A stretch of 64,000 nucleotides of DNA, from contig JBGAPI010000013.1 in assembly GCA_044221335.1 (NCBI GenBank), positions 43,256-107,255 on the forward strand. Direction: 5' to 3'. Position numbers and translations under genes: made by a program. This DNA comes from Ahniellaceae bacterium (GTDB lineage: Bacteria > Pseudomonadota > Gammaproteobacteria > Xanthomonadales > Ahniellaceae). Of the stretch, positions 36,991 through 63,872 are shown one piece after another. Numbering within the stretch: position 1 is the first letter of the stretch; every line of letters starts with the position of its first letter. The notes beneath the pieces are model-generated. The model was given only the letters and a program-made list of their open reading frames with translations, searched no databases and had not been told where the DNA came from.

Positions 36991-38061
36991 CTAGCCGACC
37001 TCCACCCGATCCCTCCCCGCCGCCTTCGCCCGATACAAGGCCTCGTCCGCGCGCTTCACCAGCCCGTGCCAGTCGTCGTCGCCGCGCGACACGGCGAGTC
37101 CGATGCTGATGCTGATCTCGAGGTCGGGCGGCGCGGCGGCGACCCCGCGGACGGCCGCCAGCATCCGTCGCGCGATCTCGAGCGCGGTGACCTCCCGCGC
37201 GCCGTGCAGCACGGCGAGGAACTCCTCGCCGCCCCAGCGGCCGACCGGATCGGAGCCGCGCAGCTGCGCGCGCAGGACCTCGCCGACCGACCGCAGGATC
37301 GCATCGCCGGCATCGTGGCCGTGGCGGTCGTTGATCTGCTTGAAGTGGTCGAGGTCGATCATCATCACCGTGAGCGGCGCGTCGTCGCGGCGGCGCGCCT
37401 GTTCCAGCGCGCGGCGGCCGAACTCGTCGATCTGGCGGCGGTTGGACAGGCCGGTCAGCGCATCGGTGCGTGCGTCCTCGGCGTGGCGAAGCTCCTGCAC
37501 GAAGGCGCGCAGCTGCTGGTGGTAGAGCACCCGGCCGGCGTTGGAGCCGACCCAGATCATCACCGCGTCCATCATCGCGAAGTTGGCCTGCTGTGGCGTC
37601 GGAACCCCAAGCACCCAGGCAAGAACGAGGATCAGCGCCAGCGCGATCAGGTTCAGCGCGAAGTAGAACGACACCGGGATCGAGTAGAAGGCCAGCACCA
37701 CCGGGAAGGCCAGGGTGCCGCCGGCGCCCCAGAGGAAGCCGTCGGTGAGCATCATGCTGGCCGCCGCGACACCGATGAAGCCGACCAGGAACACGCTGCC
37801 GTGGACGTACTTGGCGCGGCCGTCGGAGACCCCGCGGGACAGCACGACGTAGCTCGGCAGCAGGGCCAGCGCGGTGCCGATCCTCACCCAAAGAGCGTAT
37901 TCCGCGTGCTCGGGGTCGAGCCAGCGGTCCCACAGCGCGAAGCCGAGGATGCCGAGCGCGAACAGCAGGACGGGCTTCGGCGATGCGTGCGCGAGGACGC
38001 GTTCGCGGCGTTGCGCGAACTGCAGCAGCACCTCGGCACTCGGGCGCTCTCGGTGGGCCAT
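36991..38061 (-). CDS. Diguanylate cyclase (GGDEF) with N-terminal multi-TM sensor region
   Basis: About 5 TM helices, then a GGDEF domain with RTDALTGLSNRR, GGEEF signature (WGGEEFLAVL) and I-site RxxD (RGSD). Confidence 0.85.
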   Translation of the reverse strand: MAHRERPSAEVLLQFAQRRERVLAHASPKPVLLFALGILGFALWDRWLDPEHAEYALWVRIGTALALLPSYVVLSRGVSDGRAKYVHGSVFLVGFIGVAAASMMLTDGFLWGAGGTLAFPVVLAFYSIPVSFYFALNLIALALILVLAWVLGVPTPQQANFAMMDAVMIWVGSNAGRVLYHQQLRAFVQELRHAEDARTDALTGLSNRRQIDEFGRRALEQARRRDDAPLTVMMIDLDHFKQINDRHGHDAGDAILRSVGEVLRAQLRGSDPVGRWGGEEFLAVLHGAREVTALEIARRMLAAVRGVAAAPPDLEISISIGLAVSRGDDDWHGLVKRADEALYRAKAAGRDRVEVG

Positions 38062-38179
38062 GCCGAACGCTACCCCAAATCGATGCGCTTGCAGCGCGTC
38101 GATCAGCAGGAAACGGAGGTGTTTCCTGTAGAGCCCTCGCGAAGACCGAAGGCTTGGAAAACCATGTTCAGCTGTTCAC

Positions 38180-46142: not shown

Positions 46143-46216
46143 CTGTTGGAGTGGGATTCGAACCCACGACTGCTGGAGTACAAGTCCAGTGCTCTAACCG
46201 ACTGAGCTATCCATGG
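46143..46216 (-). tRNA. tRNA-Thr(TGT)-like; the acceptor stem does not pair in its outer three positions
   Basis: On the minus strand: CCATGGA-TA-GCTC-AGTCGGTTA-GAGC-A-CTGGA-CTTGTAC-TCCAG-CAGTC-GTGGG-TTCGAAT-CCCAC-TCCAACA-G. D-arm, anticodon arm (anticodon TGT) and T-arm are canonical. Only 4 of 7 acceptor base pairs form: positions 1-3 read CCA where TGT would be needed. Confidence 0.6.
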
Positions 46217-46217
46217 G

Positions 46218-46290
46218 CGTCCCCGGATGGAATCGAACCACCGACCCCCGGCTCCGCGAGCCGGTGCTCTCTCCGCTGAGCCACGGGGAC
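46218..46290 (-). tRNA. tRNA with anticodon loop TCGCGGA (formal anticodon GCG, Arg; C33 is atypical). Isotype uncertain
   Basis: GTCCCCG-TG-GCTC-AGCGGAGA-GAGC-A-CCGGC-TCGCGGA-GCCGG-GGGTC-GGTGG-TTCGATT-CCATC-CGGGGAC-G. Perfect 7-bp acceptor stem. Only 1 nt separates it from the neighbouring tRNA. Confidence 0.7.
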
Positions 46291-46594
46291 GTACTGCATG
46301 CCGCCTTCCGCCACCGGTACGCGGCCACCCAGCGGGCACCGCGCCAGACGGCCCGGGTTTCCCCAAGACCGTTATCGCTGGCGAACGAAAGGACAGACCT
46401 GCCCGTCGACGCGATTAATTGCGCCTTGATTGGTTTAATTAGTTCGGCCGCTCGCCGAATTACGGCGAGGCCCTCGCCCGGCCCGGGCACCGCAACGTTC
46501 GCGCGAAGACCACGCATGTCGTGGCACGACGCGACGGCCCTCCGTCACGTCATCGCTGCGGTGCCCGGGCATCGTCGACCCGACGACGCGCTTT

Positions 46595-46911: not shown

Positions 46912-47151
46912 GCGTATGGAGCGTAGGGCGCGCACTGCGCGCCGTCGCCCCGGTCCCGCGGTCGATCGGCGCCAGGCCGATGGGTTTCGCGATGGCGGGC
47001 AAGGCCCGCGCTACTCGTCACCCGACAGCCACGCGTATGGAGCGTAGGGCGCGCACTGCGCGCCGTCGCCCCAGTCCTGCGGTCGATCGGCGCCAGGCCG
47101 ATGGGTTTCGCGATGGCGGGCAAGGCCCGCGCTACTCGTCACCCGACAGCA
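46912..47151. repeat. Tandem direct duplication, 2 x 120 bp (about 97% identity), containing REP3 units and the last 6 codons of the adjacent gene
   Basis: Unit gcgtatggagcgtagggcgcgcactgcgcgccgtcgcccc(g/a)gtcc(c/t)gcggtcgatcggcgccaggccgatgggtttcgcgatggcgggcaaggcccgcgctactcgtcacccgacagc. The second copy overlaps the 3' end of the AIM24 gene. Confidence 0.85.
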
Positions 47152-48331: not shown

Positions 48332-48362
48332 CATGTCCGCTTTCCCCCGGCATTCCCGTCCC
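48332..48362 (+). promoter_or_regulatory. Copy C of the conserved TTTCCC-N4-5-ATTCC-N2-TCC upstream motif (shared with 52739 and 53458)
   Basis: catgtccgcTTTCCCCCGGCATTCCCGTCCC, 32 bp upstream of the beta-helix protein ATG. Confidence 0.35.
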
Positions 48363-48393
48363 TTACGGCAATCCCCACCTCGGACCTGCCGCC

Positions 48394-49458
48394 ATGCTCC
48401 GTCGCCTCGCTCTCGCCACCGCCCTTGCCGCCGCTGCCAGTCCGGCGTGCCACGCGGAAGTGCTGTGCATCAGCACGGCCGCGCAGCTGCGCAACGCGCT
48501 GATCGCCGCGGCGAGCAGCGCCTCGGCAACCGAGATCCGCCTGCACCCGGGCTTCTACTCGGTGCCCGCGGCGAGCGGCAGCGCGGTGTCGCTCAGCTAC
48601 TCGGCGAATTCCGATCTCAGCATCAGCGGCGGCTGGCGCGACGTCGGCGGCTCCTGCTCCACGCAGGGCGGCTCCCCCGACGACACCGTGATCAGCGCCG
48701 GCGGTGTCGGCCAGCTGTTCAGCGTGTTCCTGCAGACCGGCGCCGCGACCCGCTTCGAGATCAACAACGTCAGCCTGCGCCAGGGCGATCTGTCCGCCGG
48801 CGGCGGCCCCTCCGCCTGCCTCGCGATCGAGACCGACGGCAGTTCCGACGCCACCATCCTGATCGACCGCAACGAGTTCCGCCTGTGCAACCGCATCGGC
48901 GGCAGCGGCAGCGCGTTGGCGCTGACCGCGCGCAGCGCCACCGTTTACGTCCGCGGCAACGTGTTCGCCGACAACGGCAACACCGCGGGGGCGGTGTTCC
49001 TGAAGTCGCTCGGCGGTTCGATCAGCTATGTCAGCAACAACACCATCGCCAACAATCCGCAGTTCGGCGCCGGCGGCGGCCCGGGCGGCCTGCAGATCAC
49101 CGGGCTCGCCGGCGACTTCTTCTGGGTCACCAACAACGTGCTGTGGAACAACGGCACCGGCAACGGCTACGACCTGCTGGCGAACGCTCCGGCGGAGGCG
49201 CTGCTCAACAACCTGATCGGCCAGCGCGCGCCGCTGCCGGCCGGCGCCGCGGACATCAACAACCTCAGCGTCGACCCGGGGTTCACCAGCATCGTCGACT
49301 TCCGTCCGCGCACCGACTCGCCGCTGCGCAACACCGGCGTCAGCCCCAGCGGCAGCATCGTGGAGGTGGACTTCGACAACCTGCCGCGGGTGGCGGGCAG
49401 CAAGATCGATCGTGGCGCCTACGAGTACGACGAGGCCTTCGCCAACGGCTTCGAGTAG
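48394..49458 (+). CDS. Secreted right-handed beta-helix protein (choice-of-anchor Q / pectin-lyase-fold-like)
   Basis: Signal peptide MLRRLALATALAAAASPACHA. Repetitive Gly/Asn-rich beta-helix repeats (NNTIANN, VTNNVLWNNGTGNG). Ends IDRGAYEYDE, typical of choice-of-anchor Q domains. Confidence 0.65.
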   Translation: MLRRLALATALAAAASPACHAEVLCISTAAQLRNALIAAASSASATEIRLHPGFYSVPAASGSAVSLSYSANSDLSISGGWRDVGGSCSTQGGSPDDTVISAGGVGQLFSVFLQTGAATRFEINNVSLRQGDLSAGGGPSACLAIETDGSSDATILIDRNEFRLCNRIGGSGSALALTARSATVYVRGNVFADNGNTAGAVFLKSLGGSISYVSNNTIANNPQFGAGGGPGGLQITGLAGDFFWVTNNVLWNNGTGNGYDLLANAPAEALLNNLIGQRAPLPAGAADINNLSVDPGFTSIVDFRPRTDSPLRNTGVSPSGSIVEVDFDNLPRVAGSKIDRGAYEYDEAFANGFE

Positions 49459-49617
49459 GGGCGGCCGCGGCGCGGATCTTCCGGCGAAGCCGGCGCCCGG
49501 ATCGCCGCCGAGGCCGGCGGCGCGCATCCACCCTCCGGCACGGGAGAGCGCGGGCGGAGGCCCTGCTAAAATCGGGCGATCCGAGGCGGCATCGTCGCCG
49601 CCGTACCGCGCATCGCC

Positions 49618-50217
49618 GTGATCGAACGCCTGCCTCGCAGCGACCACTTCACCGTCCTCCTCGACCGTTGGCGCTCCGGCGACCGCGACGCCGAGCGCGC
49701 GCTGGTGCAGGAGTGCTACCCGCTGATGAAGGAGATCGCGGCGGGGCAGCTGCGCCGGACCCGCGGGCTGGCGCTGCAGACCACCGAGCTTGCGAACGAG
49801 GCCTACCTCCGGCTGACTGGCATCCAGGACGTCGACTGGCGCGACCGCCGCCACTTCATGGCGATCGTCGCGACCGTGATCCGCCGGCTGCTGGTCGACC
49901 TGGTGCGTGAAGGGGGCGCGCAGAAGCGCGGTGGCGCGTCCTACGTCGTGTCGCTGGACGACGCCGAGGGCGGTGCCCAGGCGCCAGCGAGTGCGGAGGG
50001 CTTCGTCGACTGGAGCATGATCGAACGGGCACTGACGGCACTCGAACGCGAGGACGCCGAGTCGGCCCAGGTGGCCGAACTGAAGGTCCTGGTCGGACTG
50101 TCGGTGCAGGACATCGCCGACGAGATGGGCAGCTCGGTCGCCACCGTCGGGCGCCAGTGGCGCTTCGCCAAGTCCTTCCTCGCGGACCATCTGCGCGACA
50201 GCGCCCCCGACGCCTGA
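49618..50217 (+). CDS. ECF-type sigma factor (planctomycete-type / TIGR02999-like, usually paired with a Ser/Thr kinase)
   Basis: GTG start. LLDRWRSGDRDAERALVQECYPLMKEIAAGQLRR matches the N-terminal signature of this ECF group. Sigma region 2 and region 4 (VQDIADEMGSSVATVGRQWRFAKSFL) are present. Confidence 0.8.
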   Translation: MIERLPRSDHFTVLLDRWRSGDRDAERALVQECYPLMKEIAAGQLRRTRGLALQTTELANEAYLRLTGIQDVDWRDRRHFMAIVATVIRRLLVDLVREGGAQKRGGASYVVSLDDAEGGAQAPASAEGFVDWSMIERALTALEREDAESAQVAELKVLVGLSVQDIADEMGSSVATVGRQWRFAKSFLADHLRDSAPDA

Positions 50218-50220
50218 GCG

Positions 50221-52734
50221 ATGGCGAGCGTCCGGTCGATCTTCGAGGCCGCGCTGGCGCGGCCGGCCGCCGAGCGCGAGGCGCTGGTGCGGGAGCTGGC
50301 GGACGGGGACCTGGCCCTGGCCGCGCGGGTCCAGCGACTGCTTGCGCTGGACGCCGCCGGCGTCCACACCGGGGACGTCAGTCCGGCCGCGGATCGCGCC
50401 GCCGCGCTGCTCGAGGAGCACGCACTGGTCGGCGTCGCGCTGGATCGCTACCGCATCGTCGCGCCGCTCGGCGCCGGCGGCATGGGCCGGGTCTTCGTGG
50501 GCGAGCGCATCGACGGCCAGTTCGAGCAGCGCGTCGCGGTGAAGTTCATCGAGGTCGCCGGCCTCGCCCCGGCCGCGCGCGCGCGCCTGGTCGAGGAGCG
50601 TCGCCATCTCGGCGTGCTGCGGCATCCCTACATCTGCCGGATCCTCGACGCCGGCCTCGGCCCGCAGGACCGCCCTTACGTCGTGATGGAACTGGTCGAG
50701 GGCCAGCCGCTCGTCGACTATTGCGATCAGCAGCGGCTCGGCATCGACGCCCGCCTGGCGGTGTTCCGCCGGGTCCTCGCGGCCGTGCGGCACGCGCACG
50801 CGGCGCTGATCGTGCACTGCGATCTCAAGTCCTCGAACATCCTGGTCGATCGGGCCGGCCTGCCGAAGCTGCTCGACTTCGGCATCGCGCGGCCCCTGCG
50901 CCAGCCGGACCCGAGTGCGGACGAACCGCGGTTCCTGTCGCCCGCGAGCGCCGCGCCGGAGCAGTTCCGCGGCGAGGCGGTGTCGGTGGCGACCGACATC
51001 TACGCACTCGGTCTGCTGCTGTACCGGCTCCTGGCGGGACGCGAGCCGTTCGAGCTCCTCGGTCTCGACGTCGCGGCGATCGAGGCGCTGACCCTCGAGG
51101 CCGCCCCCCCGCCGATGGCGCAGCGCGCGGACGACGATCCGTCCGCGGCGGCACGGCTCGGACTGCGGCCCGGCGCCTGGAAGCGACGCCTCGCCGGCGA
51201 CCTCGAGGCGATCGTGCAGCAGTGCCTCGAGAAGGACCCGGCCCGGCGCTACGCCAGCGTCGACCAGCTCGATGCCGATCTGGCCGCGGTGCTGGCGCAC
51301 CAGCCGATCGCGGCGCGCGCGGACCAGCGCGGCTACCGCCTGCGCTGCTTCCTGCGGCGCCATCGCAGCAGCGTCGCCTTCGCCGCCACCCTGGTGCTCG
51401 GCCTGACGACGACGGTCGTCGTGCTCTGGCGGCAGCAGCTCGAAGTCAGCGCGCAGCGCAACCAGGCGCTGCTCGAGCGCGATCGGGCGGAGGCTGCGCT
51501 CGGCATCCTCGAGGACGCCTTCCTCGCGGCCGATCCCTCGGAGTCGCTCGGCGTCGACACCCGCATCGGCGACGTGCTCGGGGCGGCCGAGCCCGCGATC
51601 GACGCTGTCGCCGAGCGCCAGCCGGACATCGCGGCGTCGCTGTACCGGACGCTGGCCGAGATCCATTCGGGCCTGCGCTCGGACGGCCGCGCCGCGGCAT
51701 TGGCGCACGCCGCGCGCACCCACGCCGAACTCGCCCATACCGGTCCGGTGCTGGTGCCGTACTGGATCCTGGAGGCGCGGACGCTGATCGACAATGGCCG
51801 CTTCGACGCTGCCGAGGGCCTGCTGACGCGCGCGGCCGCGGAAACGCCGGCGCTGCCGCCGGAGTGGTACATCGCCCGGGCGCGGCTGGTCAGCTTCCGC
51901 AACTCCTCCGCGGACGCGATCGCCGACGCCGAACGCGCCGTCGCGATGACCGAGGCCCGCGGCCCGACCGACCGGATCGCGACCGCCGCGCAGTGGCAGC
52001 TGGCGGAGGCGCAGCGCTCCGCCAAGGACCCGCGCGCGGCCCTCGCGACCCTCGATCGGATGCTGGAATGGCAGCGCCAGGCCGACGGCGAGCATCCACG
52101 CGCCCTGATCACCCGGCTGCGACGACTGGTCGCGCTGGAACAGGCCGGCGAGCTCGCGAAGGCCTCCGTCGACGCGGTCACCCTGATCGCCGCCGTCGAC
52201 GCCCGCTTCGGCGCGCACAGCGTGTTCGCCGCGACCGCACGCACCGCGCACGGCCGCGTGCTGCGCAAGCTCGGTGCGCTCGGACCGGCCCTGGCGCGGC
52301 TCGACGAAGCGCTGGCGATCCAGCGCGACCTGCTCGGTCCTCGCCATCCGACCACGGTCATGTCGGAATACAACCTGGCGGTGGCGCAATGGGCGGACAG
52401 CGGTCGCGCCGCCTCCACCGAGGAGCACCTGCGCAACGCGTTCACCAACGGCCTGCGGACCTTCGGCGCCAGCAGCAATATCGCGATGCTGTACCGGACC
52501 GCCCTGGCCCAGTTCCTCAACGACGCCGGGCGCGGCGATGCCGCCCTGGCCGTGCTGCTGGAGCCCGACCCGCGATCGGGATACGGCCAGTCGACCCCGG
52601 GCAATCAGGCGCGTTTCCGCGAGCAGCTCGCGATCGCCCACCGCGGCGCCGACTGCGCGAAACGACCGCGCCCGTCCTGCGGGGAAGCTGCCGCGCTGCT
52701 CGAGCAGACGTCGCCCCCGGGCGCCCCTCCGTGA
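50221..52734 (+). CDS. Membrane-anchored Hanks-type Ser/Thr protein kinase with extracytoplasmic TPR-like domain
   Basis: Kinase subdomains: GAGGMGRVF, VAVKFI, HCDLKSSNILV, DFGIAR, APEQ. One TM segment (VAFAATLVLGLTTTVVVLW). About 430-aa alpha-helical TPR-like C-terminus. Start 4 nt after the ECF sigma stop. Confidence 0.85.
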   Translation: MASVRSIFEAALARPAAEREALVRELADGDLALAARVQRLLALDAAGVHTGDVSPAADRAAALLEEHALVGVALDRYRIVAPLGAGGMGRVFVGERIDGQFEQRVAVKFIEVAGLAPAARARLVEERRHLGVLRHPYICRILDAGLGPQDRPYVVMELVEGQPLVDYCDQQRLGIDARLAVFRRVLAAVRHAHAALIVHCDLKSSNILVDRAGLPKLLDFGIARPLRQPDPSADEPRFLSPASAAPEQFRGEAVSVATDIYALGLLLYRLLAGREPFELLGLDVAAIEALTLEAAPPPMAQRADDDPSAAARLGLRPGAWKRRLAGDLEAIVQQCLEKDPARRYASVDQLDADLAAVLAHQPIAARADQRGYRLRCFLRRHRSSVAFAATLVLGLTTTVVVLWRQQLEVSAQRNQALLERDRAEAALGILEDAFLAADPSESLGVDTRIGDVLGAAEPAIDAVAERQPDIAASLYRTLAEIHSGLRSDGRAAALAHAARTHAELAHTGPVLVPYWILEARTLIDNGRFDAAEGLLTRAAAETPALPPEWYIARARLVSFRNSSADAIADAERAVAMTEARGPTDRIATAAQWQLAEAQRSAKDPRAALATLDRMLEWQRQADGEHPRALITRLRRLVALEQAGELAKASVDAVTLIAAVDARFGAHSVFAATARTAHGRVLRKLGALGPALARLDEALAIQRDLLGPRHPTTVMSEYNLAVAQWADSGRAASTEEHLRNAFTNGLRTFGASSNIAMLYRTALAQFLNDAGRGDAALAVLLEPDPRSGYGQSTPGNQARFREQLAIAHRGADCAKRPRPSCGEAAALLEQTSPPGAPP

Positions 52735-52738
52735 GAAA

Positions 52739-52784
52739 CTGATCGACTTTTCCCGCCGATTCCGATTCCTGCAGCGCGACGTCC
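52739..52784 (+). promoter_or_regulatory. Copy A of the conserved upstream motif ctgatcgaCTTTTCCCGCCGATTCCGATTCC ... CGTC
   Basis: 26/31 identity with copy B at 53458-53489, including an identical ctgatcga prefix. 50 bp upstream of the Cys-rich secreted protein ATG. Confidence 0.5.
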
Positions 52785-52833
52785 CGCCTCGGCGATCGTC
52801 GACGCCCCCCATTCATTGCCACGGAACCTGCCC

Positions 52834-53349
52834 ATGAACCGCATCCACCCTTCGCGCTGCGCCGCTGTCGCCGTCGCCGCCCTTGCCGCCGGCTCCGCCC
52901 TCGCGTCCGGCCCGCCGCCGACCTGCCCCGACCTGCAGCAGGTTCCGCCCGAGCAGTGTCCCGAGACACAGAAGTTCTCCGCGATGACGCCACTCGATTT
53001 CGTCACCGCCGCCCAGCCGGACGACTGCACCATCGAGCGGCCGGGCAAGATCGGGCCGTGGCTGCGCCATTGCGAGCCGCGGATCAACCCGCCGCCGCAG
53101 CAGCAGCTCGACTGCTCCGAGGGACTCGGCACCGCGACCTGCGAGGCCTATCCGCAGGGCGCGGAGATCCGCTACACCTGGAGCTTCAGCGGCGGCGTTT
53201 CCGGCACGCCGATCGCGAACACCACGCAGTCGATGTTCACGGTCAACTGCCTGCCGCCGAACTACGTCGGCCGGATCTACGTGACGCTGATCGGTCCGAA
53301 CAACTTGTCGAGCTCGACCTCCATGCTCGTGAGCTGCCCCCCGCAGTGA
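52834..53349 (+). CDS. Small Cys-rich secreted protein (hypothetical)
   Basis: Signal peptide MNRIHPSRCAAVAVAALAAGSALASG. 8 Cys in the mature part. 171 aa. Confidence 0.55.
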   Translation: MNRIHPSRCAAVAVAALAAGSALASGPPPTCPDLQQVPPEQCPETQKFSAMTPLDFVTAAQPDDCTIERPGKIGPWLRHCEPRINPPPQQQLDCSEGLGTATCEAYPQGAEIRYTWSFSGGVSGTPIANTTQSMFTVNCLPPNYVGRIYVTLIGPNNLSSSTSMLVSCPPQ

Positions 53350-53457
53350 GGCACGAACCGCGGTGACTCGCCGACGTCACTCGCGACGCCCGGATGGCGG
53401 TTTCCCCGCCTCCGGGCGTCGTCGTTTGTGGGCCTGCCCACCGCGCGACATCGGCCG

Positions 53458-53502
53458 CTGATCGATCTTTCCCGCGCCTTCCGATTCCCTGCCCAAGCCG
53501 TC
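53458..53502 (+). promoter_or_regulatory. Copy B of the conserved upstream motif ctgatcgaTCTTTCCCGCGCCTTCCGATTCCC ... CGTC
   Basis: 67 bp upstream of the RHS gene ATG. Confidence 0.5.
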
Positions 53503-53568
53503 GATACGGAGGGCCGCGCTGCAACCGCACGCGGCTCGACGACGGTGCCACGCAACCATGGAATCGAC

Positions 53569-56500
53569 ATGAAGACGCAACTCACCGCCCTCGCGGCGGC
53601 GATCACGCTCGTCTGGTCGGCCGCTTCCCACGCCCAGGTCGAATGGGGCCAGGAGTACGGCAACCGGATCAAGTCCCGGCAGACGATCAGCGCGCTGGGC
53701 CCCGACCTGTTCGGCGAGCAGGTGAACCTGTTCGACGGCACGACCTCGTTCTCCGCCACCGACATCGACCTGCCGGGCAACAACGCGCTGCCGGTCGCGG
53801 TGAAGCGCAAGCTCGCCGTCGGCTCGACCAGCAATGCCGGGCAGCAGGCACTGTTCGGCGACTGGGACCTCGACCTGCCGTATCTGTCCAACATCTCGAC
53901 GACCAGCAGCGGCTGGAACGCGCCGGCCGATCCGAACTTCTACTGGCGGGTCGTCGGCGGCTCCGCCGCGCGCTGCAGCGCGCCGCAGCAGGCCGGCGAC
54001 GTGGTGACCCCGGACATCGCCAACAGCCTCAACGGCGCCGCCGGCGGCGGCGGCGAGATGCTGCTGCTGACCGCATCCACCTCGAGCAAGCTGGTCCGTC
54101 CGACGCTGCCCGGCACGCGCTGGGTCACCAAGGGCCTGTGGTACCTCGGCTGTGTGCCGACGCTGGCCAGCGGCCACGCCGGCGAGGGCTTCTGGGCGGT
54201 CGACCCGCAGGGCAACAAGTACACCTTCGACTGGATGGTGCCGTTCACCTATCCGGGCTTTTCCACGCCGGCGATCAAGGCCGGCTCCGAGATCGTGCAG
54301 AACCGCTCCGAGCTGCGCCTCTATCCGACCAAGGTGGAGGACCGCTTCGGCAACTGGGTCAAGTACCGCTGGCAGGGCCGCAAACTGCTCGACATCACCG
54401 CCAGCGACGGCCGCCGCATCGACCTCACCTACGGTGCCGACGATCAGATCGTCAGCGCGACCGCCCACGGCAAGACCTGGAACTACGCCTACGTCGACTA
54501 CCCGCAGGCCAATGTCGGCGGCCATCTGACCGGGGTCACGCTGCCGGACGGCTCGGCGTGGAGCTACGGCCAGAATCCCGGACCGTACGTCGCCTACGAG
54601 CAGCACTATGAGACCCGCTACTCCTCGACGCCCGGCGGCTCGCCGATGCAGATCCAGGTCGAAGTCCTGGAGAAGGTCGCGTTCTGCTCCTACGACCACT
54701 ACCTGTCGCCGGCGGTGGTGCCGTTCGAGATGCGTCATCCCTCGGGCGCCCGCGGGGTCTTCAACTTCAAGACGATGCGCCATGGCCGCACCAACACCCC
54801 GGGCGAGTGCGCGTTCAGCTGGGACACCCACGACACGTCGAACCGCGAGGCCCAGAACAACCACAACCTCTATCCGGCCTTCAAGGACGTCTGGTCGCTG
54901 ACCGGCAAGACGCTGTCGGGCCCGGGCATGCCCGATGGCACCTGGACCTACGCCTACGACAACCTGCAGGCCTGCATCGACAGGACCTGCGCGAACAGCG
55001 GCACGCCGGTCACCAAGACCGTCACCGTCACCGAGCCGGACGGTTCGAGCACGGTCAGCACCTTCGGCAAGAACTACGGCATCGACGAGGGTCAGCTGCT
55101 CGCGGTCGAGACCCGCCAGGGCGCGACCGTGCTGTCGCGCACGAGCTACAGCTACGTCTCCAACACCGAGGCGCCGAACCAGCCGTTTCCGGATCTTGTC
55201 GGCGTGACAGCCACCGAATACGGCGATCCGTGGGCGAGTACCGCGCTGCGACCGCAGAAGGCGACGTCCACGGTCCGTGGCGGCGTCACCTTCAGCTCGG
55301 TCATCGACAGCTTCGACGCCTTCGCGCACCCGACCCGCACGACGCGTGGCAACAGCCAGGGCAACGCCCGCACCGACGTCATCGACTACTTCCACGACCT
55401 CGGGCGCTGGGTGATCGGGCAGGTGGCGAGGACCACCAACGTCGACACCGGCATGGTGGAGTCCGAGACCGGCTATACCGCGCTGGCACAGCCGCAATGG
55501 ACGAAGAAGTTCGGCAAGCTGCAGCAGACGCTGGCCTACAACCCCGACGGCACCCTCGCGAGCGTGACCGACGGGCGCGGCAACGTCACCTCGCTGTCGA
55601 ACTGGAAGCGCGGCATTCCGGGAACGATCGGCTACCCGGCGACCGCGGAAGCACCCACCGGGAGCAGCAAGTCCGCCACGGTCAATGATCTCGGCTGGAT
55701 CACCGCCCTGACCGACGAGACGGGCAGCAAGACCTGCTACGGCTACGACAATGTCGGCCGGATCAACCTGGTGACCTATCCGTCGGCGAGCACGCCCGGC
55801 ATCTGCGATGCCAGTCGCTGGAATCCCACGGTCATGGACCTGCAGTTCGTCGCCAGCGCCGAGCACGGCATCGCCGGTGGCCACTGGCGCGCCAGCAACC
55901 ACACCGGATCGGGCTACTCGACGCTGTACTACGACGCCCTGCTGCGCCCGGTGCTGGAAGAGAAGTACGACGCCGGCGACGTGGCCGGTTCGCTGTCGCA
56001 GGTGGTGAAGCGCTACGACAGCAAGGGCCAGCTGCTGTTCACCTCGTATCCGACCCGCGATGTCGGCGACATCGCCACGGTGACCCAGGGCACGCGGACT
56101 GTGTACGACGCCCTCGGCCGTCCGACCCGCAGCGAGCAGGACAGCGAGCTCGGCGTGCTGGCCACCGTCACCGAGTACACCACCGGCCTCGAGACGCGGA
56201 TCACCAATCCGCGCGGCGCGGCGACCACGACGCGATTCCTCGCGTGGGACACGCCGAACTTCGACCTGCCGGTGCAGAGCCTGCAGCCGGAAGGCAAGGT
56301 CGTCGAAGTCGCCCGCCATCCGCGGTTCGGCTGGCCGCTGGCGATGACCCAGCGCGCCGCCGACAACAGCGTCTCGCAGCAGCGCCGCTACGTCTACGAC
56401 GGCAACGCTCAGCTGTGCAAGACGATCGAGCCGGAGACCGGCGTCACGGTGACCGGCTACGACGCGGCCAACAATCCGGCCTGGATGGCCGCGGGACTGT

Positions 56501-58416
56501 CCGGCAGCGACGCGAGCTTCAACTCCACCACGGACTGCAGCTACGCCGCCGCCTATGGTTCCGGTCGTCGCGTGGACCGCAGCTTCGACGCCCGCAACCG
56601 CCTCCTCACTCTGGCCTTCCCCGATGGTCGCGGCGACCAGTCCTGGACCTACGAGAAGGATGGTCTGTCGAATGCGATCACGACGTGGAATGGCGCCGGC
56701 CGGACCCAGCCGGTGGTCAACAGCTACGCCTACGACGTCCGCCGCCTGCTGCAGACGGAGTCGATCGCGCAGACCGGCTGGTACACCTGGAGCGTCGGCC
56801 ACAGCTATGACGCCAACGGCTTCGAGCGCTGGTTGAGCTATCCGACCGGCCTCGTTCTCGACTTCGCTCCGAATGCGCTCGGCCAGGTGACCCAGGTGCG
56901 CGACCAGAACAACGTCGCCTACGCCAGCAATGCCAGCTATCACCCGAACGGCACGCTGAAGCAGTTCACCTACGGCAACGGCATCGTCCACACGATGACG
57001 CAGAACGCCCGCCAGCTTCCGGCCCGGGTCCGCGACGGTGCGGCGATGGACTACGAGTACTCCTATGACGCCAACGGCAACTTCGCGTCCATCTGGGACC
57101 ACGCCCGCGACAGCGGGAACGGCATGTTCGGTCGCTGGATGACCTACGACAACCTCGACCGCCTGACCTCGACCGGTTCCTGCACCTTCGGTGGCGACTG
57201 CTGGCACCGCTACAGCTACGACGCGCTCGACAACCTCCGCTCGTGGACGCTGACCGGGGTCAAGGACTACTCGAACTATGTCTACGACGCCAACAACCGC
57301 CTGACGGCGATCCGCAACACGGCGGGGACCACGCTGGTCAGCCTCGGGTACGACGCCCAGGGCAACCTCAGCTCGAAGAACGGCCAGGCCTTCTCCTTCG
57401 ACTTCGGCAACCGGCTGCGCGGCGCCCTCGGCAGCGAGACCTACCGCTACGACGGCCGCGGTCGCCGCGTCCAGCAGAGCAAGCCGGGCAGCGACGCGCT
57501 GTCGTTCTACAGCAGCGCCGGACAGATCCTCTTCAGCTACGACAAGTCCGGTGGCGAGAAGACGCACGAGAACATCTACCTCAACGGCAGCGTCATCGCG
57601 GAGGTCGATCACGACTGGCCGAGCAACGCGGTGCTCGCGGTGAAGTATCAGCACACCGACGCGCTGGGGAGCCCGGTCGCCGTGACCGGCAGCAACGGGC
57701 AGCTGATCGAGCGCAACGACTACGAGCCCTACGGTGCGGTGATCGGCAAGCCCGCGTTCACCGGCATCGGCTACACCGGCCACGTGATGGACGGCGGTAC
57801 CGGCCTCACCTACATGCAGCAGCGCTACTACGATGCGTCGATCGGGCGGTTCCTGTCCGTCGATCCGGTGGTCGCGGACCCGGCGAAGGCGTCCGGATTC
57901 AGCCGCTACTGGTATGCCAACGGCAATCCGTATCGCTACACGGACCCGGATGGCCGCGAAGTCGTCATCCACATCTCGCGCGATACCTATTCGGATTCGA
58001 CCGTGACGTCGCGGATCACGGTGACCAGCGATCGCACCGATGAGCATTTCGAGGGTTACACCCTCGAGACCCAGCATGCGGGTCAGAACGGCGACAAGAA
58101 GCCCTTGCAGGAGGGAACCTACAGCGGCAAGGTGCGCACGGACGGCCCGAAGGGCTTTCGGATCGAGCTGCAGAACACCCCGAAGTTCCGCAACATCCAG
58201 ATCCACTCCGGCAACACCAAGAAGGACGTGAAGGGCTGCTTCGCCGCGGGGACGACGCGCTCGGGAGACAGCGTCGGGAACAGCCGGTCGGCGATGTCGC
58301 AGATCCAGCAGGTCGTCAATGCCGATGGAACCGGGAAGATTCGCGTGGTGGTCGACGGCCCCAGCGATCCCCCGAAGCCGAACGTCGACGAATCGCGCAA
58401 ACCGAAGTCGCAATGA
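53569..58416 (+). CDS. Sec-signal RHS/YD-repeat polymorphic toxin with L,D-transpeptidase-like C-terminal domain
   Basis: Signal peptide MKTQLTALAAAITLVWSAASHAQ. Dozens of YD repeats (GRxxxxxYDxxG). RHS core YEPYGAV ... RYYDASIGRFLSVDP ... NPYRYTDPDGRE (DPxG autoproteolysis motif). About 150-aa C-terminal domain containing IQIHSGN...KGCFAAG (His...Gly-Cys as in the YkuD/LDT fold). Confidence 0.85.
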   Translation: MKTQLTALAAAITLVWSAASHAQVEWGQEYGNRIKSRQTISALGPDLFGEQVNLFDGTTSFSATDIDLPGNNALPVAVKRKLAVGSTSNAGQQALFGDWDLDLPYLSNISTTSSGWNAPADPNFYWRVVGGSAARCSAPQQAGDVVTPDIANSLNGAAGGGGEMLLLTASTSSKLVRPTLPGTRWVTKGLWYLGCVPTLASGHAGEGFWAVDPQGNKYTFDWMVPFTYPGFSTPAIKAGSEIVQNRSELRLYPTKVEDRFGNWVKYRWQGRKLLDITASDGRRIDLTYGADDQIVSATAHGKTWNYAYVDYPQANVGGHLTGVTLPDGSAWSYGQNPGPYVAYEQHYETRYSSTPGGSPMQIQVEVLEKVAFCSYDHYLSPAVVPFEMRHPSGARGVFNFKTMRHGRTNTPGECAFSWDTHDTSNREAQNNHNLYPAFKDVWSLTGKTLSGPGMPDGTWTYAYDNLQACIDRTCANSGTPVTKTVTVTEPDGSSTVSTFGKNYGIDEGQLLAVETRQGATVLSRTSYSYVSNTEAPNQPFPDLVGVTATEYGDPWASTALRPQKATSTVRGGVTFSSVIDSFDAFAHPTRTTRGNSQGNARTDVIDYFHDLGRWVIGQVARTTNVDTGMVESETGYTALAQPQWTKKFGKLQQTLAYNPDGTLASVTDGRGNVTSLSNWKRGIPGTIGYPATAEAPTGSSKSATVNDLGWITALTDETGSKTCYGYDNVGRINLVTYPSASTPGICDASRWNPTVMDLQFVASAEHGIAGGHWRASNHTGSGYSTLYYDALLRPVLEEKYDAGDVAGSLSQVVKRYDSKGQLLFTSYPTRDVGDIATVTQGTRTVYDALGRPTRSEQDSELGVLATVTEYTTGLETRITNPRGAATTTRFLAWDTPNFDLPVQSLQPEGKVVEVARHPRFGWPLAMTQRAADNSVSQQRRYVYDGNAQLCKTIEPETGVTVTGYDAANNPAWMAAGLSGSDASFNSTTDCSYAAAYGSGRRVDRSFDARNRLLTLAFPDGRGDQSWTYEKDGLSNAITTWNGAGRTQPVVNSYAYDVRRLLQTESIAQTGWYTWSVGHSYDANGFERWLSYPTGLVLDFAPNALGQVTQVRDQNNVAYASNASYHPNGTLKQFTYGNGIVHTMTQNARQLPARVRDGAAMDYEYSYDANGNFASIWDHARDSGNGMFGRWMTYDNLDRLTSTGSCTFGGDCWHRYSYDALDNLRSWTLTGVKDYSNYVYDANNRLTAIRNTAGTTLVSLGYDAQGNLSSKNGQAFSFDFGNRLRGALGSETYRYDGRGRRVQQSKPGSDALSFYSSAGQILFSYDKSGGEKTHENIYLNGSVIAEVDHDWPSNAVLAVKYQHTDALGSPVAVTGSNGQLIERNDYEPYGAVIGKPAFTGIGYTGHVMDGGTGLTYMQQRYYDASIGRFLSVDPVVADPAKASGFSRYWYANGNPYRYTDPDGREVVIHISRDTYSDSTVTSRITVTSDRTDEHFEGYTLETQHAGQNGDKKPLQEGTYSGKVRTDGPKGFRIELQNTPKFRNIQIHSGNTKKDVKGCFAAGTTRSGDSVGNSRSAMSQIQQVVNADGTGKIRVVVDGPSDPPKPNVDESRKPKSQ

Positions 58417-58478: not shown

Positions 58479-59375
58479 TCAGTTCGATCGTGACGCGGCG
58501 AAGTGCGCGATGACCGGATCCTCGATCCTGGACAGCACGCCCGCCGCCAGGTCATGCCCCATCCCCTCCACCATCACCAGCCGCGCGCCGGGAATCTTGC
58601 GCGCGGTGTCGCGGCCGCCCGCCGGCGGCGCCAGCGGGTCGTGGGTGCCGTGGATCACCAGCGTCGGCGTGCGGATCGCGCGGATCTGCGCCGAGCGGTC
58701 GCCCGACGCGATGATCGCCAGCAGCTGGCGCGCGCTGCCGGCCGGGTCGTAGCTGCGCCTGATGCCGCGGCGGATGCGCTCGCGCAGTTCCTCCGGCGGT
58801 GTCGGGAAGCCCGGACTGCCGATCGCCTGGAACAGCCGCACGTAGCGCTCGACGATCTCCGCCTCGGCCGCATCCACCGGCGGCTTCGACAGCATCAGCC
58901 GCGCGATCTTCGGGCTCGGCGGCGGCAGCCAGCGGCTGCCGGTGGTCGACATGATCGAGGTCAGCGTCAACAGCCGGGTCGGATGCTCGGCCGCCATCAC
59001 TTGCCCGATCATCCCACCCATCGACACGCCGACCACGTGGGCGGCGTCGATCCTCAGCGCATCGAGCACGCCGACGCTGTCGGCGGCCATCTCCGACAGC
59101 GTGTAGGGCGCCCGCACCGGCAGGTGCATCCAGTAGCGCAGCAGCGCCGCGCCGATCCGCACCGGCGTTCGCGCCGTGATCCGCGAGGACAGCCCGATGT
59201 CGCGGTTGTCGAAACGGATCACGAAGTAGCCGGCCGCGACCAGCCGCTGGCAGAACGCCTCCGGCCACGCGATCAGCTGCATGCCGAGCCCCATCACCAG
59301 CAGCACCGCCGGCCGCGCCGGATCGCCGAAGGTCTCGACCTCGATCTGGATTCCGTTCGCTGCGACCTGGGTCAT
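58479..59375 (-). CDS. Alpha/beta hydrolase fold protein
   Basis: Nucleophile elbow GVSMGG. Catalytic His near the C-terminus (MGHDL). 298 aa. Confidence 0.8.
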   Translation of the reverse strand: MTQVAANGIQIEVETFGDPARPAVLLVMGLGMQLIAWPEAFCQRLVAAGYFVIRFDNRDIGLSSRITARTPVRIGAALLRYWMHLPVRAPYTLSEMAADSVGVLDALRIDAAHVVGVSMGGMIGQVMAAEHPTRLLTLTSIMSTTGSRWLPPPSPKIARLMLSKPPVDAAEAEIVERYVRLFQAIGSPGFPTPPEELRERIRRGIRRSYDPAGSARQLLAIIASGDRSAQIRAIRTPTLVIHGTHDPLAPPAGGRDTARKIPGARLVMVEGMGHDLAAGVLSRIEDPVIAHFAASRSN

Positions 59376-59764
59376 CGCCGCATTGTAGGAGCCCCCACCC
59401 CATCCATGGCGTGGCGCGGTCGGCAGCCAACGAAGCCGCTGCGCCAGCCCCCAGGAGTCACCGCGCGCCGGGAGCACGCGCGACCCGCGAAGTTGTCCCG
59501 AAAGGCGGCCGGCGGGAATACCCGCCGTCAGCAGGCGACCCGGTACGCGGTACCGGGCGAGGGTCGTTGGTGCAATGCACCGACTTCGAAGCCCGGGAGA
59601 TGAGGCTCCATCAAGCGTCCCGTTGGATGGAAGCGGCGGAAGTCGCGACCGTCACCGATCACGATGGTCGAGGATCGTCGTCACGCCGCCGAAAGCACAC
59701 CCCGAGCACCCCGCCTCGCTAGACTCCCGTCGAACGACGCACACCACGGCACCCGCACCCACCC

Positions 59765-60624: not shown

Positions 60625-62652
60625 ATGGCGGACCACACCTATTTCTCGAACCTGATCTGGCAGATCGCCGACCTCCTGCGCGGGCCCTATCGTCCGCCCC
60701 AGTACGAGCGGGTGATGCTGCCGATGACGGTGCTGCGGCGCTTCGACTGCGTGCTCGCGCCGACGCGGGACACGGTGGTCGCCGAGTACGCGCGTGCCAA
60801 GGGCGGCAAGCTCACCGGCGACGCCCTCGACACCAAGCTCAACAAGGTCGCCGGTCAGCACTTCCACAACCACTCGGCGCTCGACTTCGCGAAGCTGAAG
60901 GGTGATCCGGACAACATCAATAAGCACCTGGTGAGCTACCTCAAGGGGTTCTCAGCCAACGTTCGCCGGATCTTCGACTACTTCGAGTTCGAGGCCGAGA
61001 TCGAGCGGATGCACGAGGCCAACATTCTATTTCTCGTGGTGTCGAAGTTCGCCGACGTCGATCTGCACCCCTCGATCGTGCCGAACGAGCAGATGGGACT
61101 GATCTTCGAGAACCTCATCCGCCGCTTCAACGAGCTCGCGAACGAGACGGCTGGCGATCACTTCACGCCCCGCGAAGTGATCCGACTCATGGTCAACCTG
61201 CTGTTCATCCACGACGACGAGCTTCTGGCGACGGCGGGCACGGTGCGCAAACTGCTCGACCCGGCGTGCGGTACCGGCGGCATGCTGGCCGAGGCGCAAC
61301 GCTATCTGCGCGAGCACAACGGCGAGGCCCGGCTCTACGGCTACGGTCAGGACTACAACAAGCGCGCCTTCGCGACGGCGGCCTCCGACATGCTGATGAA
61401 GGAGGTCAGCCATAATGGCGGCGGCGACAACGTGCGATTCGGCGACATCTTCACCGACGACCAGTTCCCGGCCGAAACCTTCGACTACTTCCTGAGCAAC
61501 CCGCCGTTCGGCGTCGACTGGAAGAAGCAACAGAAGGAGGTGGTGAAGGAGCACGAGAAGCTGGGCTTCGACGGCCGGTTCGGCGCCGGCCTGCCGCGGG
61601 TGAACGATGGCGCGCTGCTGTTCCTGCAGCACATGTGGAGCAAGCGCGAAGACGTGAAGCCGAAGGAACACAAGGAGGGCTCGCGGCTCGCGATCGTCTT
61701 CTCCGGCTCGCCCATGTTCACGGGCGGTGCCGGCTCGGGCGAGAGCGAGATCCGTCGCTGGCTCCTCGAGAACGACTGGCTCGAGGCCATCGTCGCGCTG
61801 CCGGAGTCGATGTTCTACAACACCGGCATCGGCACCTATGTCTGGGTCGTCACCAACCGCAAGGAGAAGCGGCGCAAGGGCAAGGTGCAGCTCCTCGACG
61901 CGCGCGATGTGTGGACCGCGGGCGGCAGCGAGGACAGCAAGCGCAGCCTCGGCGACAAGCGGCGGCACATGACCATCGCGCAGATCGACGAGGTCGTGCG
62001 CCTCTACGGCAAGTTCGAAGAGGGCCCGCGCTCCAAGATCTTCGACAACGCCGACTTCGGCTATACCCGCGTCACCATCGAGCGCCCGCTGCGCCTGCGC
62101 TACCAGATGACGACGGACGACAAGGCGCGCTTCCTCGACGCCTGCCCACACCTGCTCGACGACGTGCAGGCCATCGACAAGGCGCTCGGCCGCGAGCCGC
62201 GCCTGGACTGGCCCGCGACGTGGGACGAGATCGAGGCGCTGCTGAAGAAGCGCGGGAGCCGCTGGAAGGCGACCGAGCAGAAGCTGTTTCGCTCCGTGTT
62301 CACGCAGCGCGAGGCGATGGCCGAGGCCGTCCCGGCCGGAGGGCGTGGGTCGGGCTTCGAGGCCGACGCCGACCTGCGTGACTTCGAGAATGTGCCGCTG
62401 AAGGAGGACATCGCTGTCTACTTCGAACGTGAGGTGAAGCCGCACGTCCCCGACGCGTGGATGCCGGGCATCGGCGTTGAGGATGGCAAGGCGGTCGTGA
62501 TCGACGAGAGCAAGGCCAAGCCGGGCTACGAGATCAGCTTCAATCGCTACTTCTTCACCTTCACACCACCTCGGTCGCTGCACGACATCGACACCGACCT
62601 TCAGAGAGCCGAAGACGAGGTGCTCCGTCTGCTTCGCGAGGTGGTCGCGTGA
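60625..62652 (+). CDS. hsdM: Type I restriction-modification system DNA methyltransferase subunit HsdM
   Basis: N6-adenine MTase motifs: LDPACGTGGML (motif I) and NPPFG (motif IV). 675 aa. RBS aaaggaaac upstream. Confidence 0.9.
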   Translation: MADHTYFSNLIWQIADLLRGPYRPPQYERVMLPMTVLRRFDCVLAPTRDTVVAEYARAKGGKLTGDALDTKLNKVAGQHFHNHSALDFAKLKGDPDNINKHLVSYLKGFSANVRRIFDYFEFEAEIERMHEANILFLVVSKFADVDLHPSIVPNEQMGLIFENLIRRFNELANETAGDHFTPREVIRLMVNLLFIHDDELLATAGTVRKLLDPACGTGGMLAEAQRYLREHNGEARLYGYGQDYNKRAFATAASDMLMKEVSHNGGGDNVRFGDIFTDDQFPAETFDYFLSNPPFGVDWKKQQKEVVKEHEKLGFDGRFGAGLPRVNDGALLFLQHMWSKREDVKPKEHKEGSRLAIVFSGSPMFTGGAGSGESEIRRWLLENDWLEAIVALPESMFYNTGIGTYVWVVTNRKEKRRKGKVQLLDARDVWTAGGSEDSKRSLGDKRRHMTIAQIDEVVRLYGKFEEGPRSKIFDNADFGYTRVTIERPLRLRYQMTTDDKARFLDACPHLLDDVQAIDKALGREPRLDWPATWDEIEALLKKRGSRWKATEQKLFRSVFTQREAMAEAVPAGGRGSGFEADADLRDFENVPLKEDIAVYFEREVKPHVPDAWMPGIGVEDGKAVVIDESKAKPGYEISFNRYFFTFTPPRSLHDIDTDLQRAEDEVLRLLREVVA

Positions 62653-63872
62653 TGTTCATCGACCAGTGGACCAAGATCGCGCCGAAGCACTGGTCGCGGA
62701 AGAAGCTGAAGCACGTCGCATCACTTCGGAGCGGCGAGTCCATCACCGCTGACTCGATCATGGACGAAGGCGACTTCCCCGTTTACGGCGGGAACGGCCT
62801 ACGGGGGTACACCGGCGATTACACGCATGAGGGCGAGTTCGTGCTCATCGGTCGTCAGGGAGCGCTCTGCGGCAACGTAAACTACGCGAAGGACCGCTTC
62901 TGGGCCTCCGAACACGCGGTCGTCGTCACGAGGCTTGGTAACGTCGACCTGACTTGGCTAGGTGAATTGCTCCGGTACCTCAATCTCAATCGACTCAGCC
63001 AGTCGGCCGCCCAGCCGGGCATCTCTGCTGAGGAGGTAAGCAATGTCCTGCTCGCAGTTCCTCCGCTTGAGGAGCAGCGCGCGATCTCCGCGTACCTCAA
63101 GAGCGAGACTGCGCGGCTCGATGCACTGGTTGCTGCGAAGCAACGACTAATCGACCTGCTCGCCGAGAAGCGCAAGGCCATCATCGCCACCGCCGTCACG
63201 CGCGGGCTCGATCCAAAGGTGAAGCTGCGGGATTCCGGTGTGCCGTGGATGGGTGAGATCCCGGCGCATTGGGAAACCAAGCGTCTTAAGTATCTCGGAC
63301 AAGCCATCATTGGGCTGACCTACGCGCCAGCCGACGCAGTGATGGATGGCTCTGGCGTCCTCGTACTTCGAGCGTCTAACGTGCAGGAACGACGGATTGT
63401 CCTTGATGACAACGTCTTCGTAACTACTGCCATTCCTCCCGAGCTTATGACTCGTCGCGGCGACATTCTCATCTGTTCCCGAAGCGGGAGTCGGGCGCTC
63501 ATCGGAAAGTGCGCCCTGATCGACGCTGAATCAGAAGCAATGACTTTTGGCGCGTTTATGACTGTGTTCAGGGGCAAGTACAACTCGTACCTGTTTCACG
63601 TTTTCAATTCGCCTCTGTTTGAGTACCAAGCTGGCGCTTTTGGGACGTCTACCATTAACCAACTCACAGTCGAAACCCTTAGCAATATGGAAGTCCCGCT
63701 TCCGCCTGACGGTGAGCGTCAGGCAATTGTCGAGCACATCGCGCGCTCGACCGCGAAGCTCGACTCAGTGCGTGCGGCGATCGAGCGCACAATCGCGCTG
63801 CTCACTGAGCGCCGCTCCGCACTCATCGCCGCCGCGGTGACCGGCCGGCTCGACGTGGGGGCGGCAGCATGA
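62649..63872 (+). CDS. hsdS: Type I restriction-modification specificity subunit HsdS
   Basis: Two target-recognition domains separated by conserved coiled-coil repeats (LPPLEEQRAISAYL ... and LPPDGERQAIVEHI ...). Overlaps the hsdM stop (ATGA). Confidence 0.85.
   Translation: MMFIDQWTKIAPKHWSRKKLKHVASLRSGESITADSIMDEGDFPVYGGNGLRGYTGDYTHEGEFVLIGRQGALCGNVNYAKDRFWASEHAVVVTRLGNVDLTWLGELLRYLNLNRLSQSAAQPGISAEEVSNVLLAVPPLEEQRAISAYLKSETARLDALVAAKQRLIDLLAEKRKAIIATAVTRGLDPKVKLRDSGVPWMGEIPAHWETKRLKYLGQAIIGLTYAPADAVMDGSGVLVLRASNVQERRIVLDDNVFVTTAIPPELMTRRGDILICSRSGSRALIGKCALIDAESEAMTFGAFMTVFRGKYNSYLFHVFNSPLFEYQAGAFGTSTINQLTVETLSNMEVPLPPDGERQAIVEHIARSTAKLDSVRAAIERTIALLTERRSALIAAAVTGRLDVGAAA

Follow-up and report, generated by a model that had tools for sequence, protein, structure and literature searches.

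The ECF43 group of extracytoplasmic function (ECF) sigma factors is the main example of sigma factors activated by phosphorylation, and two of its members have been studied so far. The group consensus combines a QTTA motif carrying a phosphothreonine with an adjoining Hanks kinase, and Xanthomonadales supply 343 of the 1032 catalogued members (PMC13147305). EcfP of Vibrio parahaemolyticus lacks the acidic sigma2.2 patch, is intrinsically inactive for that reason, and is activated through phosphorylation of a threonine by the adjoining kinase (PMC8999054). The locus described herein, a sigma factor and kinase pair followed by two genes for secreted proteins, comes from an Ahniellaceae bacterium (assembly GCA_044221335.1, contig JBGAPI010000013.1, positions 43,256 to 107,255 of the forward strand). 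This stretch of 64,000 nucleotides (nt) is called the window, and coordinates refer to it unless a related locus, numbered with the letter L, is named.

A sequence motif that stands behind the kinase gene and again ahead of the second secreted-protein gene is probably the cognate promoter of the ECF43 factor, and the locus a kinase-gated regulon for secreted proteins. A preliminary description of this DNA had already put forward the shared motif as a candidate promoter of the adjoining ECF/kinase pair, controlling the secreted-protein and RHS genes, and the comparative data presented below agree with that proposal. The features concerned are the following.

49618-50217, forward strand: ECF43-group sigma factor of 199 amino acids (PF07638, TIGR02999, QTTE at residues 54-57).
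50221-52734, forward strand: membrane Hanks-type serine/threonine kinase with a C-terminal TPR-like sensor half (Pkinase, TPR_12, catalytic motifs).
52740-52767, forward strand: candidate promoter PA, with TGATCGA at 52740-52746, a 16-nt spacer and CGATT at 52763-52767.
52834-53349, forward strand: small secreted protein of 171 amino acids with a signal peptide and eight conserved cysteines, third gene of the module.
53382-53430, forward strand: GC-rich hairpin followed by GUCGUUUGU, a putative intrinsic terminator between the small-protein gene and PB, recognized by folding.
53459-53486, forward strand: candidate promoter PB, with TGATCGA at 53459-53465, a 16-nt spacer and CGATT at 53482-53486.
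53569-58416, forward strand: Sec-signal RHS/YD-repeat protein of 1615 amino acids (YD repeats, Rhs core, DUF5675).

The sigma factor matches PF07638 (E=4.7e-33; 115 bits against a cut-off of 21.1) and scores 157.7 bits with TIGR02999, above the curated cut-off of 126.15. Its sigma2.2 region reads LQTTELANEAY (residues 53-63), in which QTTE replaces the acidic DAED-type patch, and T56, the second threonine of QTTE, is unchanged across 46 homologs. Because the TIGR02999 score exceeds the cut-off, QTTE contains an invariant threonine and a Hanks kinase adjoins, the protein is assigned to ECF43; at the level of sequence, all the features that define the group are found in this pair. A Pfam scan of the neighboring open reading frames (ORFs) found no anti-sigma domain. 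The factor had initially been called planctomycete-type, a label owed merely to how the Pfam family came to be named. Its relatives are Xanthomonadales-like gammaproteobacteria. The closest ones among the matches listed come from Ahniella, Tahibacter, Silanimonas and metagenome-assembled genomes of Lysobacteraceae, and identity to the listed Xanthomonadales homologs does not exceed 54%.

The kinase gene starts 3 nt past the stop codon of the sigma gene. Its product matches Pkinase (E=6e-36) and TPR_12 in Pfam, possesses a complete set of catalytic motifs (GAGGMGRV in the glycine-rich loop, VAVK, HCDLKSSN, DFG and APE) and a single transmembrane segment, and is TPR-like in its C-terminal half; the kinases of related loci align with it over the full length. 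The original gene calls for the sigma factor, the kinase, the cysteine-rich secreted protein and the RHS protein are thus borne out by Pfam/NCBIfam, motif and signal-peptide evidence.

PA begins 5 nt after the stop codon of the kinase gene and ends 66 nt ahead of the ATG at 52834, and 82 nt separate the end of PB from the ATG of the RHS gene. The two motif copies reported before, A (52739-52784) and B (53458-53502), read as quoted and are identical at 26 of 31 positions. Such likeness could in principle result from local duplication, or from chance in DNA of about 70% GC, with a motif devoid of function: TGATCGA is common, occurring 29 times in the 64 kb, a number driven by codon usage. However, TGATCGA-N15-YCGAT gave three matches in the window and none in 100 shuffles. 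Weight matrices for the clade and for the wider family were built only from the sites of other organisms, leaving the window sites out. Copy A scores 41.2 bits with the clade matrix and 26.9 bits with the family matrix, copy B 33.5 and 23.0 bits, whereas the next-best window positions reach just 13.2 and 9.9 bits, a separation of more than 20 bits with the clade matrix.

The same matrices and alignments changed the view of which parts of the motif matter. GATTCC and CGTC, taken in the preliminary description for the -35 and -10 elements, are not conserved at orthologous sites. CGTC is present at some of them and missing from L002, from site A of L010 and from site A of L011, so it is not the conserved -10 element; nor does the family matrix show conservation downstream of CGAGTA. 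The conserved elements are TGATCGA, formerly regarded as a prefix and -35-like in position, and a -10-like CGAT or CGAGTA 16 nt later.

A comparison of ECF/kinase neighborhoods in related genomes, as had been suggested at the outset, revealed the same gene order and the same motif. Contigs from four other lineages (L002/L003, L007-L009, L010 and L011), obtained via homologs of the small protein and one 69%-identical sigma factor, keep the order sigma factor, kinase, small protein, RHS wherever the contig extends far enough. Nine upstream sites from five lineages (the window, L002, L007, L010 and L011) retain TGATCGA-N15-YCGAT while their flanks diverge, and the gap between TGATCGA and YCGAT is exactly 15 nt at all nine. 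Their alignment reads [C/G/T]TGATCGA, a spacer that is first T-rich and then CCGC, and YCGAT(T/G). As a separate observation, a second, divergently arranged pair of ECF (PF07638) and Hanks kinase genes lies directly upstream of the orthologous cluster in L002 (6446-9865), and such modules therefore occur as paralogs.

A more distant set comprised Ahniella affigens (L012), the metagenome-assembled genome L013 and 80 metagenome loci picked by sigma homology alone (41-53% identity; 519 kb). The same architecture is found there with CGAGTA as the -10-like element. Across the 519 kb, TGATCGA-N-CGA[GT][TG] was counted 28 times with N=16, each other spacing between N=8 and N=25 giving 0-8 occurrences, and a looser form of the motif gives 34 matches against a mean of 6.1 in 30 first-order Markov simulations. 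The loose pattern does show a codon-driven, 3-nt-periodic background within coding DNA, but the peak at N=16 is out of phase with it. Together with the conservation of both window sites in four other lineages despite diverged flanks, these comparisons essentially refute chance or local duplication as the origin of the likeness between A and B.

The position of the motif relative to the kinase gene is equally characteristic. Among the 38 loci with a complete kinase, 11 carry the strict motif between -40 and +400 nt from the kinase stop codon, and in nine of these the TGA of the stop codon is the TGA of the motif. The stop codon thus doubles as the first bases of TGATCGA, so that coding and promoter-like sequence overlap. 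Stop codon and motif coincide in L002 (13146-13148), L015, L023, L028, L033, L034, L040, L053, L054 and L082. A second copy follows 0.5-1.1 kb further downstream in many loci, and in some a copy is pointed at a divergent gene. In L028 and L016 the motif stands upstream of the sigma gene itself, an arrangement that suggests autoregulation. The genes behind the motif overwhelmingly encode proteins with signal peptides. With a broader profile, the small-protein gene was located after the kinase in about 22 loci; the motif precedes it in at least 15 of them, and most of the exceptions have TGAGCC-N17-CGCGTA there. Likewise, TGAGCC-N17-CGCGTA or TGATCGA-N16-CGCGTA takes the equivalent position in several loci without a strict match. 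The three variants of the motif correspond to three sigma clades in a neighbour-joining tree, with only two independent changes: CGAT in the window clade, TGAGCC/CGCGT in L030, L031 and L066, and CGAGT elsewhere.

This distribution also bears on the question of which protein reads the motif. If it were the promoter of another alternative sigma factor, the ECF43 pair would be a mere neighbor, and it is true that this sigma factor is connected to the motif by sequence context and that paralogs such as the upstream pair of L002 exist. Yet the motif adjoins ECF43/kinase pairs on dozens of unrelated contigs, usually at the kinase stop codon, precedes the ECF43 sigma gene in L028, and varies along with the ECF43 sigma tree, which makes a different sigma factor quite improbable.

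The motif could also be explained as an operator, bound by a repressor or activator whose gene accompanies the small-protein gene. In L002 the site comes close to a palindrome (ATCGAC...TCGAT) and matches on the reverse strand with a single mismatch, and the association is with the whole module rather than with the sigma factor alone. On the other hand, the family consensus TGATCGA-N16-CGAGTA has no dyad symmetry; the motif is non-palindromic and points toward the downstream genes, and its strict 16-nt spacing, fixed orientation and location 17-290 nt ahead of start codons suit a promoter. Besides the sigma factor and the kinase, the module contains no conserved regulator gene, and the variants covary with the sigma lineage, the motif even lying upstream of the sigma gene in some loci. 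An operator is therefore regarded as unlikely.

Several points nevertheless weigh against the proposal that the motif is the promoter of the ECF43 factor and that the locus is its regulon for secreted proteins. Since the motif goes with the entire three-gene module, another factor that always regulated the small-protein gene would create a similar picture. The -35 element is without the AAC typical of many ECF promoters, and the strict pattern occurs in just about one third of the distant loci, the remainder having a variant or nothing recognizable (L043, L047). A scan of 48-59 kb for consensus terminators and sigma70 promoters found nothing, and the hairpin at 53382-53430 was missed by it for its short T-run. 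No immunity gene stands behind the RHS gene, which leaves the word toxin an assumption.

The mechanism that we infer extends to promoter use by the sigma factor, its phosphorylation, the signal sensed and the roles of both secreted proteins. The sigma factor would be made in an inactive form, with QTTE occupying the place in sigma2.2 of the acidic DAED-type patch through which RNA polymerase is bound. The co-transcribed membrane kinase would sense an extracytoplasmic cue via its TPR-like half and phosphorylate the sigma factor, which would then guide RNA polymerase to TGATCGA as the -35 element and, after a 16-nt spacer, CGAT(T/G) as the -10 element. From PA, transcription would reach the third, conserved gene of the module, which encodes the small eight-cysteine secreted protein with its PKD-like fold. 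PB, located past the hairpin terminator, would drive the Sec-signal RHS protein with its variable C-terminal domain, here DUF5675.

The expression of the sigma-kinase operon itself may depend on a further element.

49564-49572, forward strand: TGCTAAAAT, resembling an extended -10 element, ahead of the sigma gene in the window and in L007.

TGCTAAAAT is conserved between these two loci amid otherwise divergent intergenic DNA and may serve the sigma-kinase operon as a housekeeping promoter. The matrix scan found no ECF43 motif upstream of the sigma gene of the window; this, in combination with the conserved TGCTAAAAT, would fit constitutive synthesis of an inactive sigma factor. As PA follows the kinase stop codon so closely, with no terminator between, read-through from the sigma-kinase operon is possible. 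Further downstream, the hairpin at 53382-53430 has a folding energy of -39.3 kcal/mol (z=-5.0), is followed by a short U-run and recurs in L007, L010 and L011. It is a probable intrinsic terminator, and its position between the small-protein gene and PB implies that the two target genes are probably separate transcription units. A scan of 36-60 kb with Rfam detected no known RNA besides tRNAs.

The small protein has no match in Pfam or NCBIfam. A word-seeded search of 5.8 billion proteins yielded only four homologs, and an exhaustive profile search of 1.84 billion proteins 30 clusters at 50% identity. Among the related loci, a profile of the window clade finds the protein in L012, L013, L023, L033, L053, L054, L071 and L082. 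The signature of the family consists of the eight conserved cysteines and CE(A/V)WPQG...Y.WS.SG. Based on an alignment of 31 sequences, AlphaFold (AF2) produced a model with a predicted local distance difference test (pLDDT) score of 87.8; an earlier model from 4 sequences (pLDDT 43) was set aside. The C-terminal 90 or so residues of the model resemble a PKD/FN3 beta-sandwich (target-normalised TM-score 0.6-0.72, E about 3e-3), and a fold search with it returned generic PKD/FN3/Ig matches only. The predicted fold points to a binding module and not to an enzyme. Short cysteine-rich peptides were also encountered: in L013 (11236-11588) and L053 (9525 onward), second copies of the motif precede peptides of 64-79 amino acids with a signal peptide and the pattern CxxC...WxCGG...C...C...C, an undescribed small cysteine-rich family probably co-regulated with the module.

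In the RHS protein, Rhs_assc_core spans residues 1385-1462 and DUF5675 residues 1468-1583. The motif also precedes RHS orthologs in two other loci, L002 (46% identity) and L054 (38%). The alignment to the L002 ortholog stops at residue 1463, beyond which the C-termini diverge, the L002 protein being without DUF5675. The latter domain matches only the phage family phrog_1501, to which no function is assigned there. No immunity gene is found downstream on the forward strand: the next real gene encodes an alpha/beta hydrolase on the reverse strand (58479-59477), and the forward-strand ORF overlapping it has no Pfam match and poorer codon statistics. A Pfam scan of 29 ORFs of the window brought up neither genes of a type VI secretion system (T6SS) nor a PAAR- or VgrG-linked Rhs. 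The 5' leader of the RHS gene contains a hairpin, GGCCGCG...CGCGGC, conserved between the window (53492-53571; z=-2.2) and L010 (1992-2070; z=-2.8), and after it, directly ahead of the start codon, a segment that is almost the same in the two loci, CATGGAATCGACATG in the window and CATGGAATCAACATG in L010. The leader may be regulatory.

Two further sites of the window deserve mention as possible members of the regulon.

48341-48362, forward strand: copy C of the preliminary description, in which TGATCGA is absent.
38079-38105, reverse strand: core match TGATCGA-N15-TCGAT, a candidate only, separated by 18 nt from the ATG of a MASE8-GGDEF gene (36991-38061, reverse strand).

Copy C had been presented as a weaker copy of the motif. 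The sequence is present as written, but it lacks TGATCGA and ranks between 122nd and 1150th of the 127,934 window positions with the above matrices. The gene behind it encodes a beta-helix/choice-of-anchor-Q protein and adjoins the sigma gene in the closest relative too (91% identity). The membership of copy C and the beta-helix gene in the regulon is unsupported rather than disproved. The match at 38079-38105 is exact in its core, yet the full matrix gives it 9.3 bits, which is background level. The motif was not found upstream of orthologs of this diguanylate cyclase gene that are 46-48% identical, and these are preceded by sigma70-like TTGACC...CAGTCT promoters. As an ECF43 promoter, the site is an unconfirmed candidate.

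The surroundings of the cluster show some additional traits. Upstream, at 46147-46291 (reverse strand) and 46912-47150, there are a tRNA-Arg(gcg), a second tRNA-like Rfam match and then a 121-nt unit repeated twice with 98% identity. A genomic island may have its edge in this tRNA/repeat region, a short way upstream of the ECF43 cluster. On the other side, type I restriction-modification genes, hsdM (N6_Mtase, HsdM_N) and hsdS (Methylase_S), lie at 60625-63872 on the forward strand, in a region with a GC content of 0.62-0.64 against about 0.70 elsewhere in the window.

A motif beside ECF43/kinase pairs offers the prediction of regulons straight from sequence, and PA and PB are usable as reporter targets. 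If the proposed promoter is correct, it would represent the first defined ECF43 promoter code and make regulons predictable in hundreds of genomes. Neither a published ECF43 promoter consensus nor a target promoter of the two studied members was found in the literature searched, whose reach did not include Iyer 2020 and Bayer-Santos 2018; the motif may be new. The conserved output, namely a disulfide-rich secreted family, short cysteine-rich peptides and a Sec-signal RHS protein, is unlike the known T6SS and polymyxin-resistance outputs. A broader picture, tentative and rather doubtful at present, would be that the ECF43/kinase pairs of Xanthomonadales-like bacteria form a conserved three-gene module, whose third gene encodes an undescribed eight-cysteine, PKD-like secreted protein with a promoter at or over the kinase stop codon. 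That protein could be a periplasmic feedback partner of the kinase TPR sensor or a helper of the RHS protein, and the output turned on by the module could be an RHS toxin that is exported by Sec without a T6SS and, as EcfK would suggest, is perhaps aimed at eukaryotic grazers.

EcfK/PknS of Xanthomonas citri has in common with the pair described herein the sigma group, the pairing of a sigma factor with a Hanks kinase, the related bacterial order and a transmembrane kinase with an extracytoplasmic domain (PMC13147305). QATE in EcfK corresponds to QTTE in the window sigma factor, both of the Q-x-T-E type that keeps one acidic residue (PMC13147305). Their outputs differ: EcfK controls an anti-amoeba type VI secretion system, whereas the proposed targets in the window are the small cysteine-rich secreted protein and the RHS protein, the latter with a Sec signal peptide in place of a PAAR- or VgrG-linked N-terminus. 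EcfP/PknT is the source of the mechanism proposed for the window (PMC8999054). The output of EcfP is polymyxin resistance and its motif STTA, and the window differs in both.

With RHS polymorphic toxins, such as T6SS Rhs effectors and the C subunits of Tc toxins, the window RHS protein shares the YD repeats, a core with a DPxG-type end and a variable C-terminus. It departs from them in having a cleavable Sec signal and in the absence of an adjoining PAAR, VgrG or TcA/TcB-type partner and of a downstream immunity gene. Like the motif described herein, classical ECF promoters, for example of the SigW type (TGAAAC-N16-CGTA), are bipartite, with a rigid spacer and a -10 element that begins with CG, and are occasionally involved in autoregulation. 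The window motif has a similar geometry, its CGA beginning 23 nt after the first base of TGA, with TGATCGA instead of an AAC-containing -35 element. In most of the ECF43 loci the sigma operon is without the motif, which fits post-translational control, unlike the anti-sigma systems with autoregulation. To the known type of ECF43 system, this locus and its relatives contribute two useful additions, a putative promoter consensus and a conserved third gene.

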